This document shows, one piece after another, positions 12,143-19,356 of a stretch of DNA of 64,000 bases (the first letter of the stretch is position 1; each line of letters begins with the position of its first letter). A program made the translations under genes and the position numbers. The notes beneath the pieces were generated by a model. That model did not search any database, was not told the DNA's origin, and saw nothing but the letters and a program-made list of their open reading frames with translations. This DNA comes from a virus (Duplodnaviria; Caudoviricetes), in IMG/VR virus record IMGVR_UViG_3300014590_000001, positions 96,001-160,000 of that record. The stretch is one strand, 5' to 3'.

Positions 12143-13237
12143 TTATTTAGTGACGCGGCCTTTAACAGCAGGAAGAGGATTGTAATCTTCCATAGTGAAA
12201 TATTCAGCCGTGATATTTTCCAGAAGTTCTTCCGGAGTCATTGAAAAGATCTTGTCGTCGATACGCAGAATTGGATACTGCATCGGCTCGCCAGTTTTAC
12301 GAACTTTTTCTACCAGCGTCAGGAATTGATCGTATTGTTTGTTCAGCGCTTCCCAATGATGATCGTAAACGTGCGTGTTCGTTGTGTCGAAAGTAATGCT
12401 GCCAATATTCAGGCCGCAATATTTCGCGAACAGATGGAACATCGCAGTGTATCCCGCGACGTTGAACGGGAATCCGAGCAGCGTATCTGATGAACGCAGG
12501 AATACACTCAGGTGCAAACTTTCTTCGAACGATTCACCGTGCGCGTAACGCATGATCGTTTGCTCGTACATAGTGGACGGCAGAACGTTGAATTCGAAAC
12601 CAGTGTGACACGGAGGCAGACCTTGCATGTTCACGTATGCCGGATTGAAAGCCTGAACACGAATGCGACGAGAGCGCGAACGATCTTTAATATCGTGCAG
12701 CGCATTCAGAAGTTGATCAACGTGACCTTCAACCAACATGCGACCGTCTGCCAGTTCAGTAGCTTTACCGCCGCGCTCAACCATGCGCATCATTTCTAAC
12801 GTGTTGCGAGTTTGTTCGGCAACGGTTTTGCAATCTTCGGTACGCGGGAAGATTTTAATGTCAGGCCAACGTCGCCACATAGCGCCGTAAATCGGGCCAC
12901 ACTCGCCATCTTCGTCTGCCCATTCATCCCAAATCTTACTGTTAAGAGAATTGATATTTGTTTCGCCGCGCATGAACCAACAGGTTTCATCTACAGCAGC
13001 AACCCAATTCTTTTTAGCAGACAGTGGCAGAGGAAACGCCGCAGCAGTATTCGCCAGTTGCATTACGCAGCCGGGAACAGTTTGCCAGCGATCTTCTGTA
13101 CGTTTCGGATCTTGTACCGGACGACCTTCTTCGCGAATCAAATCAACACGACCCATATACAAGCAATCGTAATTGTCCAGCGCGTAGGCGTTGAAGTCTT
13201 GCTCACGGCGCAGATCCAGTTGTGGATATTTACTCAT
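12143..13237 (-). CDS. thyA: Thymidylate synthase
   Basis: GPIYG, RSRR, catalytic LPPCH, RSSDxxLGxPFN (dUMP-specifying Asn), HVY. Confidence 0.95.
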   Translation of the reverse strand: MSKYPQLDLRREQDFNAYALDNYDCLYMGRVDLIREEGRPVQDPKRTEDRWQTVPGCVMQLANTAAAFPLPLSAKKNWVAAVDETCWFMRGETNINSLNSKIWDEWADEDGECGPIYGAMWRRWPDIKIFPRTEDCKTVAEQTRNTLEMMRMVERGGKATELADGRMLVEGHVDQLLNALHDIKDRSRSRRIRVQAFNPAYVNMQGLPPCHTGFEFNVLPSTMYEQTIMRYAHGESFEESLHLSVFLRSSDTLLGFPFNVAGYTAMFHLFAKYCGLNIGSITFDTTNTHVYDHHWEALNKQYDQFLTLVEKVRKTGEPMQYPILRIDDKIFSMTPEELLENITAEYFTMEDYNPLPAVKGRVTK

Positions 13238-14108
13238 TGGTTCCCTTATCTTCTTCGATGGTAACACGGCTCAGAGCGCACTTCTCAAACTTGTATTGTT
13301 CACCGATATAAATACCGTCAGTGGTTCCAAATACAAGCGTGGTTAAAATTCCGAAGCAGTCGAAAACAACTTCGTCGCCCTGAATAGAATTTACAGTTAA
13401 TGTATCGCCAGAGAAAATCTTCTTATCCATAAGTGCCTGAAGATTTCGCGCACTCAAAATAAGATAGTCAACAGGCGCTCGATCAAAGTTTCGTTGCAGC
13501 AAGAAATTGGTGCGGAAATGGTGCAGCGTGATTGTATGCAGATTGCCTTTCTCGTCGTGATAGTTCACATACGGGCACGGCTGATCTTTATTGGTTACGC
13601 TATCAACTACAGCAAACGAAATTTCTTGTTCGTATTCCATGTGACCTACCGCATTAAATTTTCCAGTAGGTACAGAGAATTCGTGATACCACTTCGAACC
13701 GACAGCAGGGAAATCAATTTTGTTTGCGGCGTAAGCAGCCAACGCGACCAAACGATCCAAAGGAGTTTCAGACGCATTAGATTCATTGTCACGCATTTTG
13801 AACTTGCGAATAAACTCATGCGCCGGACGTGAGTAAATTGCGTATCCGTTAGCCGTCATATAGGTGACAGTAAGAGGCCACTCAATTCCATGAGCGTAAG
13901 AGTTTGACACAACCTGAATGGTATAAAACTTTTCGTTCTTGTAGTGTTGCCAGATAGTGCCTGGAATTAAACGTCCTTCGCGGAACATTTCGCGAGCGAT
14001 TCGTTCGTACTTGCGATTGAGATATTTTTCGCGCAGCAAATAGACCAGCAACAGCGCCATGCAGACTTTGATGAAATAGAAAATAGCTTCGCCAACAGTT
14101 ACAATCAT
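13230..14108 (-). CDS. Membrane-anchored DUF1653-like domain protein
   Basis: N-terminal TM helix; GTIWQHYK...VTY...YSRPAHEFIRKF plus a second degenerate copy. Confidence 0.6.
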   Translation of the reverse strand: MIVTVGEAIFYFIKVCMALLLVYLLREKYLNRKYERIAREMFREGRLIPGTIWQHYKNEKFYTIQVVSNSYAHGIEWPLTVTYMTANGYAIYSRPAHEFIRKFKMRDNESNASETPLDRLVALAAYAANKIDFPAVGSKWYHEFSVPTGKFNAVGHMEYEQEISFAVVDSVTNKDQPCPYVNYHDEKGNLHTITLHHFRTNFLLQRNFDRAPVDYLILSARNLQALMDKKIFSGDTLTVNSIQGDEVVFDCFGILTTLVFGTTDGIYIGEQYKFEKCALSRVTIEEDKGTNE

Positions 14109-14569: not shown

Positions 14570-15346
14570 TTAACAGATAGTTTGAGTCATTCGTTTTTCG
14601 GACGCGTTGATATAATCCACAACTTCTTTTTCCGGAATATGAATCAACGTAAAACCTTCAGCTTCCAGCAGATGATCAGTAATGCGATAACTGCGAGAGA
14701 AAACAATAGTGCGAATATCGCTGTTCAGGCGCAGGAAGTTCAGACAATCAGGACACGGTGAATCCGTGATATACATTGTGTCGAATCGAACATCTTCGCA
14801 CACGCACATATTTTTGATCGCGTTTACTTCAGCGTGAACAACATCCGGAGAAGACAGAGTGCAAAGATTATCTTCACACGTATTCTCGTAACCGACTGGA
14901 GTACCATTAACGCCGCTACTTAAAATAACAGGCGGTTGATTTGGAGTGCGACGAACGATCAATGCAGCACATGCGCGACGGCGAGATTTTGAAACGTTAG
15001 CCAGCATAAACGCCGCAGATAAAAACGGATAGTGTTGGATACGATCCGCAATTGGAATAGTTCCAAAGTGTCCGTTCAGTTCCAGATGAATCACACACTC
15101 GGCAAAAGTATCGTGAGCGAAAACAGGAATACCTTCAAGCTCAGGATTCAACAGGCGACCGCCACCATCAAGGCGCATAACTACAGGCATGATCATACTG
15201 CCGTTATGCTTTACCTGTTCCAAAGTATCAAACACAACGCTGTCTTGATCGTGCTGATTAGTCCAGAAATGCAGAGTGCGGATCAGACTTTTGTTTTTGA
15301 TCGTTGCCGGACGAATAACCAAAAACGCTTTAACTTTCGATTCCAT
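14570..15346 (-). CDS. dCMP deaminase with N-terminal extension
   Basis: SGVNGTP, HAEVNAI and SPCPDC zinc-deaminase motifs; start MESKVK. Confidence 0.9.
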   Translation of the reverse strand: MESKVKAFLVIRPATIKNKSLIRTLHFWTNQHDQDSVVFDTLEQVKHNGSMIMPVVMRLDGGGRLLNPELEGIPVFAHDTFAECVIHLELNGHFGTIPIADRIQHYPFLSAAFMLANVSKSRRRACAALIVRRTPNQPPVILSSGVNGTPVGYENTCEDNLCTLSSPDVVHAEVNAIKNMCVCEDVRFDTMYITDSPCPDCLNFLRLNSDIRTIVFSRSYRITDHLLEAEGFTLIHIPEKEVVDYINASEKRMTQTIC

Positions 15347-15665
15347 TTTCTTTCCTGTAATGAACAATGAGTGCTCGCATAACAGCGGTTGTGTGATCGG
15401 TTCCGAAACCTTCGCAACCAGATAAAGTTTTTGCACGATACGATGCAGTATGCAGACGCTCAACACTGATTTCATGAACGAGCATCAGACGCATAATGTT
15501 ATGCCCTTCGTAAACGTTCGGCATCATCGACATGAATTGAACAGTGCCGTCAGCATCGATCCATTCTTCAGTCTCTTCACCAGCGCACCAACCTTCGCGC
15601 ATAGTCCACCCACGAGCAATCAGGTATTGAGTCTGAAGTTCTTGCCGCTCGTCGCAGGTACTCAC
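15330..15665 (-). CDS. NinX/DUF2591-like phage protein
   Basis: C-terminal GTDHTTAVMRALI pattern; tentative. Confidence 0.5.
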   Translation of the reverse strand: MSTCDERQELQTQYLIARGWTMREGWCAGEETEEWIDADGTVQFMSMMPNVYEGHNIMRLMLVHEISVERLHTASYRAKTLSGCEGFGTDHTTAVMRALIVHYRKENGIES

Positions 15666-16329: not shown

Positions 16330-16590
16330 TTACAGTTTTTTGATTTGTACCATACGTACAATCAGACCCTGCAATTTAGCTTGTTTGGCACACGCTTCCG
16401 AAACATCTTTCCAGCCGTCTTTACCGTCCATCAGTGCGACCTGATAGCGAGTTTCGAAACTTTCAGGATTTTCAGTAGTAACCCAAACTTTTTTATCCAG
16501 AAACGCTTGAGGAAGTTCGTCCGGAATTCCAACCCAAACACCCGCGCCCATGAGAGTGGTTACGAATGGCCCAGCCACATTTTGAGTCAT
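16330..16590 (-). CDS. Hypothetical protein
   Basis: Start re-assigned to MTQNVAG (GAGG RBS). Confidence 0.65.
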   Translation of the reverse strand: MTQNVAGPFVTTLMGAGVWVGIPDELPQAFLDKKVWVTTENPESFETRYQVALMDGKDGWKDVSEACAKQAKLQGLIVRMVQIKKL

Positions 16591-16600
16591 GAAACTTTCC

Positions 16601-16795
16601 TCAGATAATACAGCCGCCACCTTCGCAGTTGTTGGAAGGTTCGAACGCCTCACCGCCGCCGTCACGTTTCGCTTCAATCGCAGCTTCATCGATCTCTAAC
16701 GAATCGAAAAAGTTTTGCTCGTCGAATGGATCGGATGGATTATTGTTTTTAGGGAAAGCGCTTCCCTGCGCAAGAATATCGTCAACCTTACTCAT
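16601..16795 (-). CDS. Small acidic protein ending in an NrdA-like CxxxxC tail
   Basis: ...EPSNNCEGGGCII-stop; AAGGA RBS. Confidence 0.7.
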   Translation of the reverse strand: MSKVDDILAQGSAFPKNNNPSDPFDEQNFFDSLEIDEAAIEAKRDGGGEAFEPSNNCEGGGCII

Positions 16796-17516
16796 TGTCA
16801 TTCCTTACAGCACGTAAATGATTTGCCGCAGTATTTGTACGCGACGGTTTGCCTAACAAATAAATCGAACCTGCGCCCGTCATAACAACTACACCGCCAT
16901 CTTCAGCAAGTGCAGCAGGATAGCGATAGATGATCGGTGCGTCATTGAAACGCGTAATCATACTACCTACCATCGTACCGTTTTCTTCGCGAAGATATTT
17001 TTCGGTATATTCGAACGCAGTTTGCAGAAGCGGATGAAGATTTGGCATCCCAGGAAATGCGAGACAACGAGATTGCAGTTCTTCGTCGTACTCTTCTTTC
17101 ACCAAAACTTCTGCGCAGTACATGGCGATATTAGTATCAACCAAACGGCGAGCGCATTGAATCAAAACAATTTCTTCGTGAAGATTCACACCAAACTCAA
17201 ACGCCTCAACAATCTGTTCTTTCGTGAGAATGTCTTTGTATCGGTGAAAAACTTCTGTCAGAAGATCCATGCTCAGTCCGGCGATAACAATATTCACCAG
17301 ATGATTTGAAGAAGGAATGCCTACGTGATACGTGCGCCAAACATCATTGAGCAGATCGAGATCTTCGTCTTTGAGCAGCAGAGCATTGCGAACAGCCTTA
17401 CCCTGAATGTCCAGAAACATCGGACTAGCGCCAGTGCGAACTTGTTCACCTTCCCATTTCGCATACGCTTCGAATCTTCCCAAACTTTTGGCAGAGATAG
17501 CACTGAAGTTTTCCAT
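16788..17516 (-). CDS. Hypothetical protein
   Basis: About 242-aa ORF. Confidence 0.7.
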   Translation of the reverse strand: MENFSAISAKSLGRFEAYAKWEGEQVRTGASPMFLDIQGKAVRNALLLKDEDLDLLNDVWRTYHVGIPSSNHLVNIVIAGLSMDLLTEVFHRYKDILTKEQIVEAFEFGVNLHEEIVLIQCARRLVDTNIAMYCAEVLVKEEYDEELQSRCLAFPGMPNLHPLLQTAFEYTEKYLREENGTMVGSMITRFNDAPIIYRYPAALAEDGGVVVMTGAGSIYLLGKPSRTNTAANHLRAVRNDNE

Positions 17517-17523
17517 AATCACC

Positions 17524-17678: not shown

Positions 17679-18527
17679 CTAATAGTTAGTCACGATGATT
17701 TCTTTCGTACCGTGAGAATCGCGATGGGAATTAGCCAAACAGTAATGCTTGTCTATCTTATGAACCTTTACATCTTTTTTGTTTTTCTTCAGCCAGCTAA
17801 TCAGCAACTGGTTTTTGAAGTGGCGATGTTCGGTTACGTTGCTCAACATCCAACGCACATTGCGCTTAGTAAGGCCAGCCAGATTATTCAGCAAACGCTG
17901 TTCATCTTCTTCGCCGTACTTCGCATAAGTGTTAGCGCCGGAAGCCAGATAAGGTGGATCGAAATAGAAGAACGTTTTCTTATCCAGTTGTTTTCGATTG
18001 TGGAGTTCGTGAATCACTTCGGTATAACTTCCGCAGTGGAATTGCACGTTGTCCATCAGTTCGAAAAACTTCGTGAGTTCAGCTTCAACTTCATCGAAAC
18101 GATTCAGTAATCCACGATCACCAAACGGGGTATTGAAATGACCGTCAAGATTAAAGCGAAGAAGATTGCTATAAGCATGACGCTGAAGAATATAAAACAG
18201 AAGCGGATCATTTTTCGCATTCGCATACTTTTTAAAATCCTCAAACTGTTTTGCATTGCTGTTAGTCAGCGCCCATTTCGTTACCGTGCTTTTAATACGG
18301 CGCATCAGTTTCTTCGGATCGTTTTGTGCAAGGTGCTTAACGATTTCGAATACCTGTTCGTGACGCTCGATATACAGGCGCGATTTGAACGGCATGTTTG
18401 CAACCACAACAGCACTGCCGCCAAACGCGTCAATCATTCGTGTGCAGCCAGTAGGAAGCAAACTTTGAATAACAGGAAGTAACTCTCGTTTGTTTCCTTG
18501 AAACTTAATTGGACTCGCGTGAATCAT
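17679..18527 (-). CDS. dam: DNA adenine methyltransferase (T4 Dam-like)
   Basis: DAFGGS (motif I), YFDPPY (motif IV), SNLLRFNxxGxFNTPFG recognition hairpin, WMLSN, EIIVTNY. Confidence 0.9.
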   Translation of the reverse strand: MIHASPIKFQGNKRELLPVIQSLLPTGCTRMIDAFGGSAVVVANMPFKSRLYIERHEQVFEIVKHLAQNDPKKLMRRIKSTVTKWALTNSNAKQFEDFKKYANAKNDPLLFYILQRHAYSNLLRFNLDGHFNTPFGDRGLLNRFDEVEAELTKFFELMDNVQFHCGSYTEVIHELHNRKQLDKKTFFYFDPPYLASGANTYAKYGEEDEQRLLNNLAGLTKRNVRWMLSNVTEHRHFKNQLLISWLKKNKKDVKVHKIDKHYCLANSHRDSHGTKEIIVTNY

Positions 18528-18535
18528 ACGTTTTC

Positions 18536-18841
18536 CTAACTGAAATAAATACGACAGCCGCAGTTCGGGCACTCAGGTTCCTTTACGCGTAACCGTTTTG
18601 TTTTTGTAAGCGGCGCAGAATAAATATCGTAAGCAGACAGGCAGCGATAACACAAAACAATCTTTGGAACCACTGTCTGAATTTTAATGAACTTCACAGG
18701 AAGAGGAACAATGACATGCAGGTTAAGAATATTGTTTTCAATATCCTCTACCGTGTTGTTGGTTTCATCGCAAATAACTTTCGGTTTTCCACCGTAAGCA
18801 GTCTCTACATTTGCAAGAAATTCTTTTTGTTGTGGATTCAT
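18536..18841 (-). CDS. Zinc-ribbon protein
   Basis: CYRC...CPNCG; start MNPQQ. Confidence 0.65.
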   Translation of the reverse strand: MNPQQKEFLANVETAYGGKPKVICDETNNTVEDIENNILNLHVIVPLPVKFIKIQTVVPKIVLCYRCLSAYDIYSAPLTKTKRLRVKEPECPNCGCRIYFS

Positions 18842-18845
18842 TCTG

Positions 18846-19356
18846 TCACCTGAATTTATTGACCAACTCACGCAATTCGTCTTGAGACAATTCATCAAGA
18901 TCCTTTGACGTGCATCCGTATCGAAAAGTATTTGCGAATTCTTCACCAGCTTTATCGTCATCGCCTACGCAAACAAAACGCAGATTGAGAGCGGTTAATT
19001 GTTGTCGAAGTTGTTCGCTAACATCGCTACCGAGAACAGACCACGCATTAGCGCCAACACTATGCAACGCACATGCTTTGAAAACTGATTCAGTTAAGAA
19101 TACGGTCGTCCCGTTTAGGTATAATTTCCGTTCCCCACACCAACTGTTTGCCACCAAACACGCGAGTGAAATAGCGGCACTCTTTCGGGTTACGATCTTT
19201 CTTTGGTGCGTCCGGAGTGTATACCTGAACGCCTCGCATAGCGCGGTCAAAACTAAATAGAGGAACAGTCATCTGGTTCGGTGAAAGCCACGCGAAATGC
19301 TTCTCTGGATTCCAGTGCCTGTTTGTTAGATGCTGCAACAGCGTTGTTTCTTTCAT
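18846..19356 (-). pseudogene. Toprim-domain primase split by a +1 frameshift near 19114-19116
   Basis: N-half (19090..19356) and C-half with VFLTESVFKA and VGDDDKAG lie in different frames; removing one A from CCT-AAA-C gives a continuous 169-aa protein. Confidence 0.75.

Follow-up and report, generated by a model that had tools for sequence, protein, structure and literature searches.

The gene and its product

In a window of 64,000 nucleotides, taken from positions 96001-160000 of a complete phage genome of 256,657 bp that has direct terminal repeats (IMG/VR record IMGVR_UViG_3300014590_000001), we analysed a small minus-strand gene at 16601-16795, the product of which resembles the C-terminal redox tail of NrdA, the alpha subunit of class Ia ribonucleotide reductase (RNR). 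The full product is MSKVDDILAQGSAFPKNNNPSDPFDEQNFFDSLEIDEAAIEAKRDGGGEAFEPSNNCEGGGCII, with the end NNCEGGGCII. The open reading frame (ORF) called by program has 66 codons, and its true start is most likely the second ATG, at 16795, giving a protein of 64 residues, because AAGGA lies 6 nt upstream of this codon, the codon overlaps the stop of a 244-aa ORF, and the beginning MSKVDD is shared by distant homologues. The overlap with the TAA stop of the upstream ORF (ATGAGTAA) indicates that the two genes are translationally coupled. A promoter and terminator scan gave the counts expected from shuffled sequence.

The protein is acidic, with an isoelectric point (pI) of 4.05, 14 Asp plus Glu and 4 Lys plus Arg. 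An AlphaFold2 model built on a 24-sequence alignment has a mean predicted local distance difference test (pLDDT) of 60 and a predicted template modelling score (pTM) of 0.20, and contains just two short helices, at residues 4-9 and 37-45; the last 19 residues are unstructured. The original prediction of an acidic, probably disordered protein of 64 residues is thus borne out, and the model suggests that its end would be a flexible segment, as the redox tail of RNR alpha is. Cys57 and Cys62 lie within the last ~10 residues at the spacing, 2-4 apart, that marks such tails. Ahead of the tail, the motif GGGE forms a putative glycine hinge, which possibly, on a weak likeness, corresponds to RDGAED of NrdA. 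A Pfam search of the 64-aa protein gave no match.

Likeness to the NrdA tail

In class I RNR, a disordered C-terminal tail with two Cys re-reduces the oxidised active-site Cys, and thioredoxin (Trx) or glutaredoxin (Grx) re-reduces the tail (PMC9669993, PMC11903788, PMC4078304, PMC5704485). In NrdA, the tail, once reduced, swings into the active site, where it acts on the catalytic disulfide. The phage protein reproduces both Cys, the acidic run, the terminal K/I-I and the flexibility of the NrdA tail. In NC_000913.3, NrdA of E. coli K-12 ends in ...TRDGAEDAQDDLVPSIQDDGCESGACKI (...YYQNTRDGAEDAQDDLVPSIQDDGCESGACKI), in agreement with the end from which the original prediction had argued. NrdA ends were taken from the genomes of 80 Enterobacteriaceae and of 40 other members of the GTDB order Enterobacterales, and they follow the pattern TRDGA.D-(variable linker)-(E/D)DD.C(E/A)(S/G)G(A/G)CKI. 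The variants CEGGACKI, CEGGGCKI and CEGGCKI occur both among NrdA ends and in the phage family, and some NrdA tails (..TTVVEAEDDGCEGGACKI) are alike to the phage sequence GGGEVVEASDECEGGACKI over 17 residues.

Comparison by hhalign of the phage family (41 sequences) with class Ia NrdA tails (41) gave a Prob of 95.6%, P = 1.2e-8 and a score of 39.1 over 15 columns, the match running end to end so that the C-termini of both alignments coincide. None of 300 column-permuted NrdA alignments reached this score, and the null maximum was 19.4. When five whole Enterobacteriaceae genomes were searched in six frames with the family profile, each gave a single match, to the final 11 codons of nrdA, with coordinates that were cross-checked. 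A DNA pattern encoding C-E-x-G-(A/G)-C-K-I-stop was present in 76 of the 301 bacterial genomes searched and never more than once in a genome (0 for a reversed control), and its position is the 3' end of nrdA wherever it was cross-checked against an NrdA search. The end CE(S/G)G(A/G)CKI was found on 70 ORFs in 2.9 million IMG/VR contigs; 23 of them encode RNR alpha and 47 encode small acidic non-RNR proteins of 41-270 aa. The ending is therefore diagnostic of NrdA in cells and commoner on small stand-alone proteins in phages. As judged from these comparisons, the resemblance is specific and is not due to chance.

The likeness is that of a short linear motif of ~15 residues and not a detectable domain homology. 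Searches of PDB sequences with phmmer and hmmsearch retrieved no NrdA or other RNR, and a six-frame search of host genomes with the single family member P0022 gave no match. The 64-aa protein is not itself a member of the NrdA family, having no PF02867 barrel N-terminal to the tail. A weak match of RxGGGE(I/V)V to malate dehydrogenase (ERTRKGGGEIV; E ~1; profile positions 30-48) was judged to be chance. Tracking of host NrdA variants by the phage tails was also considered and was not seen: the 80 sampled Enterobacteriaceae ends, Klebsiella included, are all CESGACKI, and the tail is CEGGACKI in Klebsiella phage Miami and CGDACKI in Salmonella phage SPLA10.

A conserved family in jumbo phages

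Searched with tblastn, 50,697 phage records contained the gene in 47 records with one query and in 59 with another. The carriers are jumbo phages of 210-294 kb with Erwinia, Dickeya, Klebsiella, Raoultella, Serratia, Salmonella, Yersinia and Proteus as listed hosts, apart from one further record with the label Stenotrophomonas. A search of the phage collection for near-identical DNA, from which the window's own record was apparently absent, gave no match. In 1.84 billion representative proteins, a profile search found 34 clusters, the source of which, wherever named, is again jumbo phages of Enterobacterales. Every match in these clusters reaches the last residue of the protein, and no full-length RNR was among the matches. 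All members found lack a functional annotation ("hypothetical protein"); sequence searches of Pfam, PHROGs, NCBIfam, PADLOC and PDB returned no match for the family, and nothing matched in the defence and anti-defence libraries.

The tail is the most conserved part of the family, the consensus end of which is ...RVExM(R/Q)xGGGE(V/I)(V/L)E(A/P)S(N/D)(E/D)CEGG(A/G)CKI-COOH. Invariant alignment positions are G47, E49, C57 and C62, and both Cys are kept in 41 of 41 distinct aligned members, which answers the question of conservation on which the original prediction had staked itself. The Cys are mostly separated by four residues, with variants of three (CGDGC, CEGGC) and two (CEGC), and this variation parallels that of natural RNR tails. 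Further upstream, an N-terminal motif recurs in the variants MSKVDDILA and MSGKDLSxYLxP, the former being kept inside some fused forms, and an acidic-hydrophobic block, F-D-x-x-x-L-x-x-L-D-x-D, is followed by a short helix and RVExM.

A short acidic protein with F-D-x-D-like motifs and C-terminal Cys could also be a lanthipeptide-like precursor of a ribosomally synthesised and post-translationally modified peptide (RiPP), in which an acidic FxLD-type leader would precede a Cys core modified by a maturase. Rank 2 of a feature search of the ESM Atlas was indeed a cluster automatically named 'putative FxLD family lantipeptide', with 0.83, below the 0.9 level, and one radical SAM gene is present elsewhere in the genome. 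However, conservation in the family is highest in the 'core' and lowest in the 'leader', the reverse of the usual precursor pattern; Ser/Thr before the Cys pair are not conserved; NCBIfam gave no precursor match and the genome no LanC; the radical SAM gene lies ~55 kb away and has no SPASM match; no neighbouring enzyme is conserved, and the motif is otherwise exclusive to NrdA. A RiPP precursor is on these grounds not supported, and we regard it as very improbable.

A portable module

The GGGE-family module occurs as a free peptide or fused to at least four unrelated N-terminal domains, represented by SPLA10 (P0013), SA002 (P0021), Yoloswag gp34 (P0032) and pEa_SNUABM_54 gp211 (P0016). The N-terminal domains of the SPLA10, Yoloswag gp34 and SA002 fusions are mutually unrelated and have no Pfam match. 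BLAST and hhalign found no link among 11 groups of upstream or fused partners, and the 244-aa ORF upstream of the gene studied here is unrelated to the upstream or fused partners of other lineages. A fixed partner protein was rejected, since neither BLAST nor hhalign linked the groups, at least seven, that are formed by upstream proteins and fused N-terminal parts; the tail module is therefore self-contained and portable, and not half of a fixed two-gene system.

Similar stand-alone ends are found beyond this family. Besides the GGGE family, the 47 small IMG/VR ORFs include several families in which the sequence ahead of the tail is unrelated: bare peptides of ~40-55 aa (e.g. MIKEDEMDFTLFDGLEVEEPDYEVERFESDEDEGCEGGACKI), one family with ...SDFDDFDLNIDEEALERANAERMAEQ...CEGGACKI, another in phages of 44-49 kb, and proteins of ~70-kb N4-like contigs that carry a PF13876 domain (N4 gp49/Sf6 gp66; E 1e-27 to 1e-35) and end in ...GFLEDDNCEGGGCKI. 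The NrdA-like end on PF13876 proteins may be a clue to the role of this widespread domain of unknown function.

This distribution, with the module fused or translationally coupled to at least seven unrelated N-terminal or upstream proteins, PF13876 proteins included, would suit a portable redoxin-docking or electron-relay tag with a use other than in RNR, recruiting Trx or Grx to phage proteins or passing electrons to another acceptor. Many members, however, are bare peptides of 41-64 aa with no domain to serve; the one fused N-terminal domain inspected by eye (P0013 vs P0014) has no conserved acceptor Cys; no oxidoreductase-like acceptor was detected adjoining the gene, and the tail matches NrdA specifically and not other Trx substrates. 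We therefore consider such a tag improbable.

A separate family of ~50-aa peptides (L172, L175/L176 and L173/L174, on contigs of 55-195 kb) combines an N-terminal DFDDF(D/E)L with the end CEGGACKI. The former differs little from the C-termini of gammaproteobacterial NrdB, e.g. SDEFDDFDL: SLDFDDFEL of L172 and VSDFDDFDL of L175 gave a shuffle p <= 0.001 and a permuted position-specific scoring matrix (PSSM) p of ~0.005, and QNELDDFDI of L196 a shuffle p of 0.0015. It is possible that the peptides of L172, L175/L176 and L173/L174 mimic two tails, that of NrdA and that of NrdB. The same idea, that the N-terminal and middle motifs copy the NrdB C-terminal tail (SSYL...DDLSNFQL), had been prompted by SSYL...EVD...L..F.L in P0022 and was not supported for the window protein or its family. 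With the pattern [DE][DE][LF]x[DG]F[DEQ]L, the best PSSM score of the window protein was -1.6 (shuffle p 0.80); the family score of 9.6 in hhalign was reached by 79 of 300 nulls, and a permuted-PSSM null over 14 family representatives gave 407 of 3000. The match is strong in just a few relatives.

RNR and redoxins in the carrier genomes

DNA precursors are made de novo by RNR alone, and a phage either brings its own enzyme or relies on that of the host. The original prediction had noted that no RNR gene lies in the window, and this holds for the whole 256,657-bp genome, in which PF02867 (NrdA/NrdE/NrdJ), PF00268 (NrdB), PF13597 (NrdD), PF00085 (thioredoxin) and PF00462 (glutaredoxin) gave no match, while positive controls for these profiles scored in reference genomes. 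PF02867 was likewise absent from 13 further complete GenBank jumbo phages with the gene, of ~10 lineages, and from all 25 IMG/VR records with small ORFs ending in CEGG(A/G)CKI, including the 14 that are >=90% complete. In sum, RNR alpha was found in none of ~28 complete or near-complete tail-bearing phage genomes, and NrdD and thioredoxin in none of 27.

At least 5000 of the 50,697 phage records (at least 10%) encode an NrdA homologue, and large phages of Enterobacterales commonly carry RNR. Stand-alone tails and phage RNR thus appear to be anti-correlated, in a comparison that has no size-matched control, in which the lineages are not independent and for which the base rate is known only as at least 10% of records. 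The original prediction had asked for a phage NrdA lacking its tail, and the genome encodes no NrdA of any form. That the peptide supplies a tail to a tail-less phage NrdA was accordingly rejected, with no RNR of any class in this genome and none in the 13 related jumbo phages; the tail cannot therefore serve a phage RNR and would act on host components.

The absence of RNR from the carriers would also be expected if the gene were a functionless remnant, an nrdA 3' end left after the phage lineage lost its RNR, and the tail may indeed have arisen by capture of an nrdA 3' end, or else by convergence. As the current state of the gene, a vestige is excluded by its deep conservation, its own translation signals and its extra motifs: the tail is kept over 34 clusters at <50% identity, its Cys do not vary, and the gene has a start and a Shine-Dalgarno sequence of its own as well as two further conserved motifs. 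Moreover, there is no trace of NrdA, the YYxNT motif included, ahead of the last ~15 residues, and similar tails stand on small proteins of unrelated kinds in phages that are themselves unrelated. Of all the explanations weighed, we give this one the least credence.

Gene neighbourhood

The gene lies within a tightly packed, co-directional run on the minus strand (Table 1), in which primase fragments and a Dam methylase are followed by the 244-aa ORF, the tail gene and two more ORFs of unknown function. A PolI-type 5'-3' exonuclease and a macro-domain protein are placed in the run by synteny with Dickeya phage JA13. As the original prediction had stated, homologues of ThyA and dCMP deaminase lie within 4 kb, and a nucleotide-metabolism and replication run with both genes also surrounds the tail gene in Dickeya phages JA13 and AD1 and in Erwinia phage Yoloswag.

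Table 1. Positions of the gene, its parts, its neighbours and comparable loci. Positions are those of the window unless a locus is named.
Feature	Position	Strand	Size	Basis or remark
Open frame	16601..16801	-	66 codons	program ORF
Gene for acidic, predicted disordered protein, MSKVDD...GGGEAFEPSNNCEGGGCII	16601..16795	-	64 aa	stop codon 16601-16603
Shine-Dalgarno AAGGA	16802..16806	-		6 nt 5' of ATG 16795; read from sequence
N-terminal motif MSKVDDILA	16769..16795	-		common to distant members; helix 4-9
Acidic-hydrophobic middle motif DPFDEQNFFDSLEIDE and short helix DEAAIEAKR (residues 37-45)	16661..16732	-		alignments, AlphaFold2 model
GGGE (residues 46-49), putative hinge	16649..16660	-		near-invariant; family alignment columns
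Tail-like module AFEPSNNCEGGGCII	16604..16648	-	last 15 residues	hhalign against NrdA tails; both Cys invariant
Cys57	16625..16627	-
Cys62	16610..16612	-
Upstream ORF, function unknown	16788..17522	-	244 aa	69% identical to Dickeya phage JA13_019
Downstream ORF, function unknown	16330..16590	-	86 aa	ATG 10 nt past tail-gene stop; own Shine-Dalgarno GAGGAAAG
dCMP deaminase homologue	14570..15475	-	301 aa	PF00383, E 7.5e-11
Thymidylate-synthase-family protein (ThyA homologue)	12143..13267	-	374 aa	PF00303, E 3.8e-56
Dam methylase	17679..18572
Primase-like ORF	18536..18961	-		phrog_17952/849
Primase-like ORF	18846..19250	-		phrog_17952/849
Radical SAM protein, function unknown	~167355..168515 (outside window; L163:811-1971)	-	386 aa	PF04055, Fer4_12; no SPASM match
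Tail as C-terminus of longer protein, Salmonella phage SPLA10	L005:3341-4189		282 aa
Tail as C-terminus of longer protein, Erwinia phage Yoloswag gp34	L008:3689-4129		146 aa
Tail as C-terminus of longer protein, Salmonella phage SA002	L160:3129-3620		163 aa
PF13876 protein with NrdA-like end	L194:1088-1456			IMG/VR
PF13876 protein with NrdA-like end	L199:1754-2200			IMG/VR
PF13876 protein with NrdA-like end	L203:1193-1582			IMG/VR

Several neighbours have unusual features. The dCMP deaminase homologue has an N-terminal extension of ~150 aa and the ThyA-family protein has insertions; together with the Dam methylase, these hint at an altered pyrimidine metabolism or DNA modification. The primase-like sequence forms two short separate ORFs, with the same annotation in Dickeya phage JA13, and the phage primase is possibly split or degenerate. 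Outside the window, a 275-aa ORF for which Pfam gave no match comes next after the radical SAM gene.

Proposed function

Conservation, statistics and motif specificity together strongly support the view that the protein at 16601-16795 is a free-standing mimic of the NrdA C-terminal redox tail. To that extent the original prediction holds; its further choice among an electron shuttle, a redoxin decoy and an inhibitor of host RNR is still a matter of inference that the computation does not separate. Since neither RNR nor redoxins are encoded by the phage, the relay of electrons from host Trx and Grx to NrdA is most probably the target.

Our preferred proposal, which we hold tentatively and below the level of an even chance, is that the free tail is a functional copy of the NrdA tail that feeds this relay. 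Host Trx and Grx would reduce the free phage tail as a surrogate substrate, and the reduced tail would then pass electrons in trans to the oxidised active site of NrdA, so that the output of deoxynucleoside triphosphates (dNTPs) from the only RNR available to the phage would be sustained or raised. Binding to Trx or Grx and to NrdA, with stimulation rather than inhibition, is what the proposal would require. A productive role is modestly favoured over a blocking one because neither the attacking nor the resolving Cys varies, because carriers rely on the RNR of the host, and because the gene lies among genes of dNTP metabolism; retention of both Cys fits a full dithiol/disulfide cycle better than a dead-end blocker.

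Several considerations weigh against stimulation. The native tail is tethered and works at high local concentration; a free tail might not add flux. In the RNR of B. subtilis, the binding of tail and of substrate in the active site is mutually exclusive, and thus an abundant free tail could equally inhibit (PMC11903788). Toxicity in trans is known for a C-terminal fragment of the large subunit of a fungal RNR, which forms a complex with Rnr1 (PMC3618301). The DFDDF(D/E)L motif of a few related families would block the enzyme if it bound to the cleft for the beta tail, and the conserved N-terminal and middle-helix motifs have no assigned partner. The limits of the RNR-absence association given above count on the same side.

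Several of these points can be turned to the support of an inhibitor or decoy, a reading that is nearly as good but that we still consider rather doubtful. Here the free tail and the NrdA tail would be competitors for Trx and Grx or for the active-site pocket, and some relatives might also occupy the NrdB-tail cleft, throttling host dNTP synthesis much as is proposed by analogy with yeast Sml1 and the Neurospora UN-24 fragment. The phage would live on nucleotides recycled from host DNA through dCMP deaminase and ThyA, which would suit the salvage of host deoxynucleoside monophosphates. The evidence for mimicry is identical for both readings; the pocket shared by tail and substrate in the B. 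subtilis enzyme, the toxicity of the fungal fragment and the NrdB-tail-like motifs of L172, L175 and L196 all fit inhibition, and an inhibitory tail mimic would harm a phage-encoded class I RNR too, which explains RNR-less carriers equally well. On the other side, a 257-kb phage without RNR would be cutting its sole de novo source of dNTPs, a trap would work better without the resolving Cys than with both Cys invariant, a plain Trx or Grx substrate would be reduced once and then be inert, and the NrdB-like motif is absent from the window protein and not general in its family.

More broadly, the stand-alone tails in many unrelated phages without RNR suggest an undescribed viral route to tap or block the host supply of DNA precursors. 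RNR-less phages of many lineages (jumbo, N4-like and 40-50-kb) could share an unrecognised class of small disordered effectors that copy the tails of the class Ia RNR of the host, the NrdA redox tail in every case and an NrdB-like alpha-binding motif in addition in some families, and that dock on host NrdA, on redoxins or on both to reprogramme dNTP synthesis; we think this only a little less probable than its contrary. If true, these would be the first viral regulators that impersonate an enzyme's own mobile electron-shuttle arm, and phages would have, in the molecular mimicry of an RNR subunit tail by one of their natural gene products, a new means of taking over or shutting down a central host enzyme. 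They would also offer a natural trans-acting probe of tail docking and re-reduction, the least understood half of the class I RNR cycle, a possible explanation of nucleotide supply in RNR-less jumbo phages, and a peptide scaffold against bacterial class Ia RNR or its redoxin partners.

Comparison with known systems

Full-text literature searches found no report of virus-encoded stand-alone RNR tails, and the nearest known systems differ from the phage protein in different ways. Yeast Sml1 is, like Spd1, Dif1 and Hug1, a small disordered regulator of RNR, and Sml1 acts on the large subunit; the phage protein is alike in size and disorder and is proposed to act on NrdA. Zhang et al. are said to have reported in 2007 that Sml1 competes with the C-terminal tail of R1 in the regeneration of the active site. 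Sml1, however, has no copy of the Cys pair and is a cellular, checkpoint-regulated protein and not a viral one, and no search gave any Sml1-like sequence similarity to the phage protein.

The closest natural fragment with an action in trans is the PA incompatibility domain of Neurospora UN-24, which consists of 135 aa from the C-terminus of an RNR large subunit and has a full-length large subunit as its target (PMC3618301). It belongs to eukaryotic allorecognition, is a larger fragment that forms a non-reducible complex and leads to cell death, and is not a natural stand-alone viral gene. Synthetic R2 C-terminal peptide inhibitors of RNR are, with the NrdB C-terminal tail, a further point of comparison: they are short acidic-hydrophobic mimics of a subunit tail, comparable with the few related phage proteins that carry DFDDF(D/E)L. 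This likeness is not significant for the window protein or for the family as a whole, and the motif is internal in the phage proteins, whereas it is C-terminal in NrdB.

The closest counterpart is the tail of class Ia NrdA itself. The phage protein shares with it the double-Cys motif CE[SG]G[AG]C[K/x]I and, as in the E. coli tail (C754/C759, ...DDGCESGACKI), its extreme C-terminal place, its disorder and the preceding acidic residues. The MSKVDDILA, FDxxxLxxLDxD and RVExMRxGGGE motifs of the phage protein are absent from NrdA. Moreover, the tail of NrdA is a cis element on the catalytic barrel, whereas that of the phages is a stand-alone protein of 41-94 aa, or is carried on unrelated N-terminal domains, in phages that have no RNR of their own.

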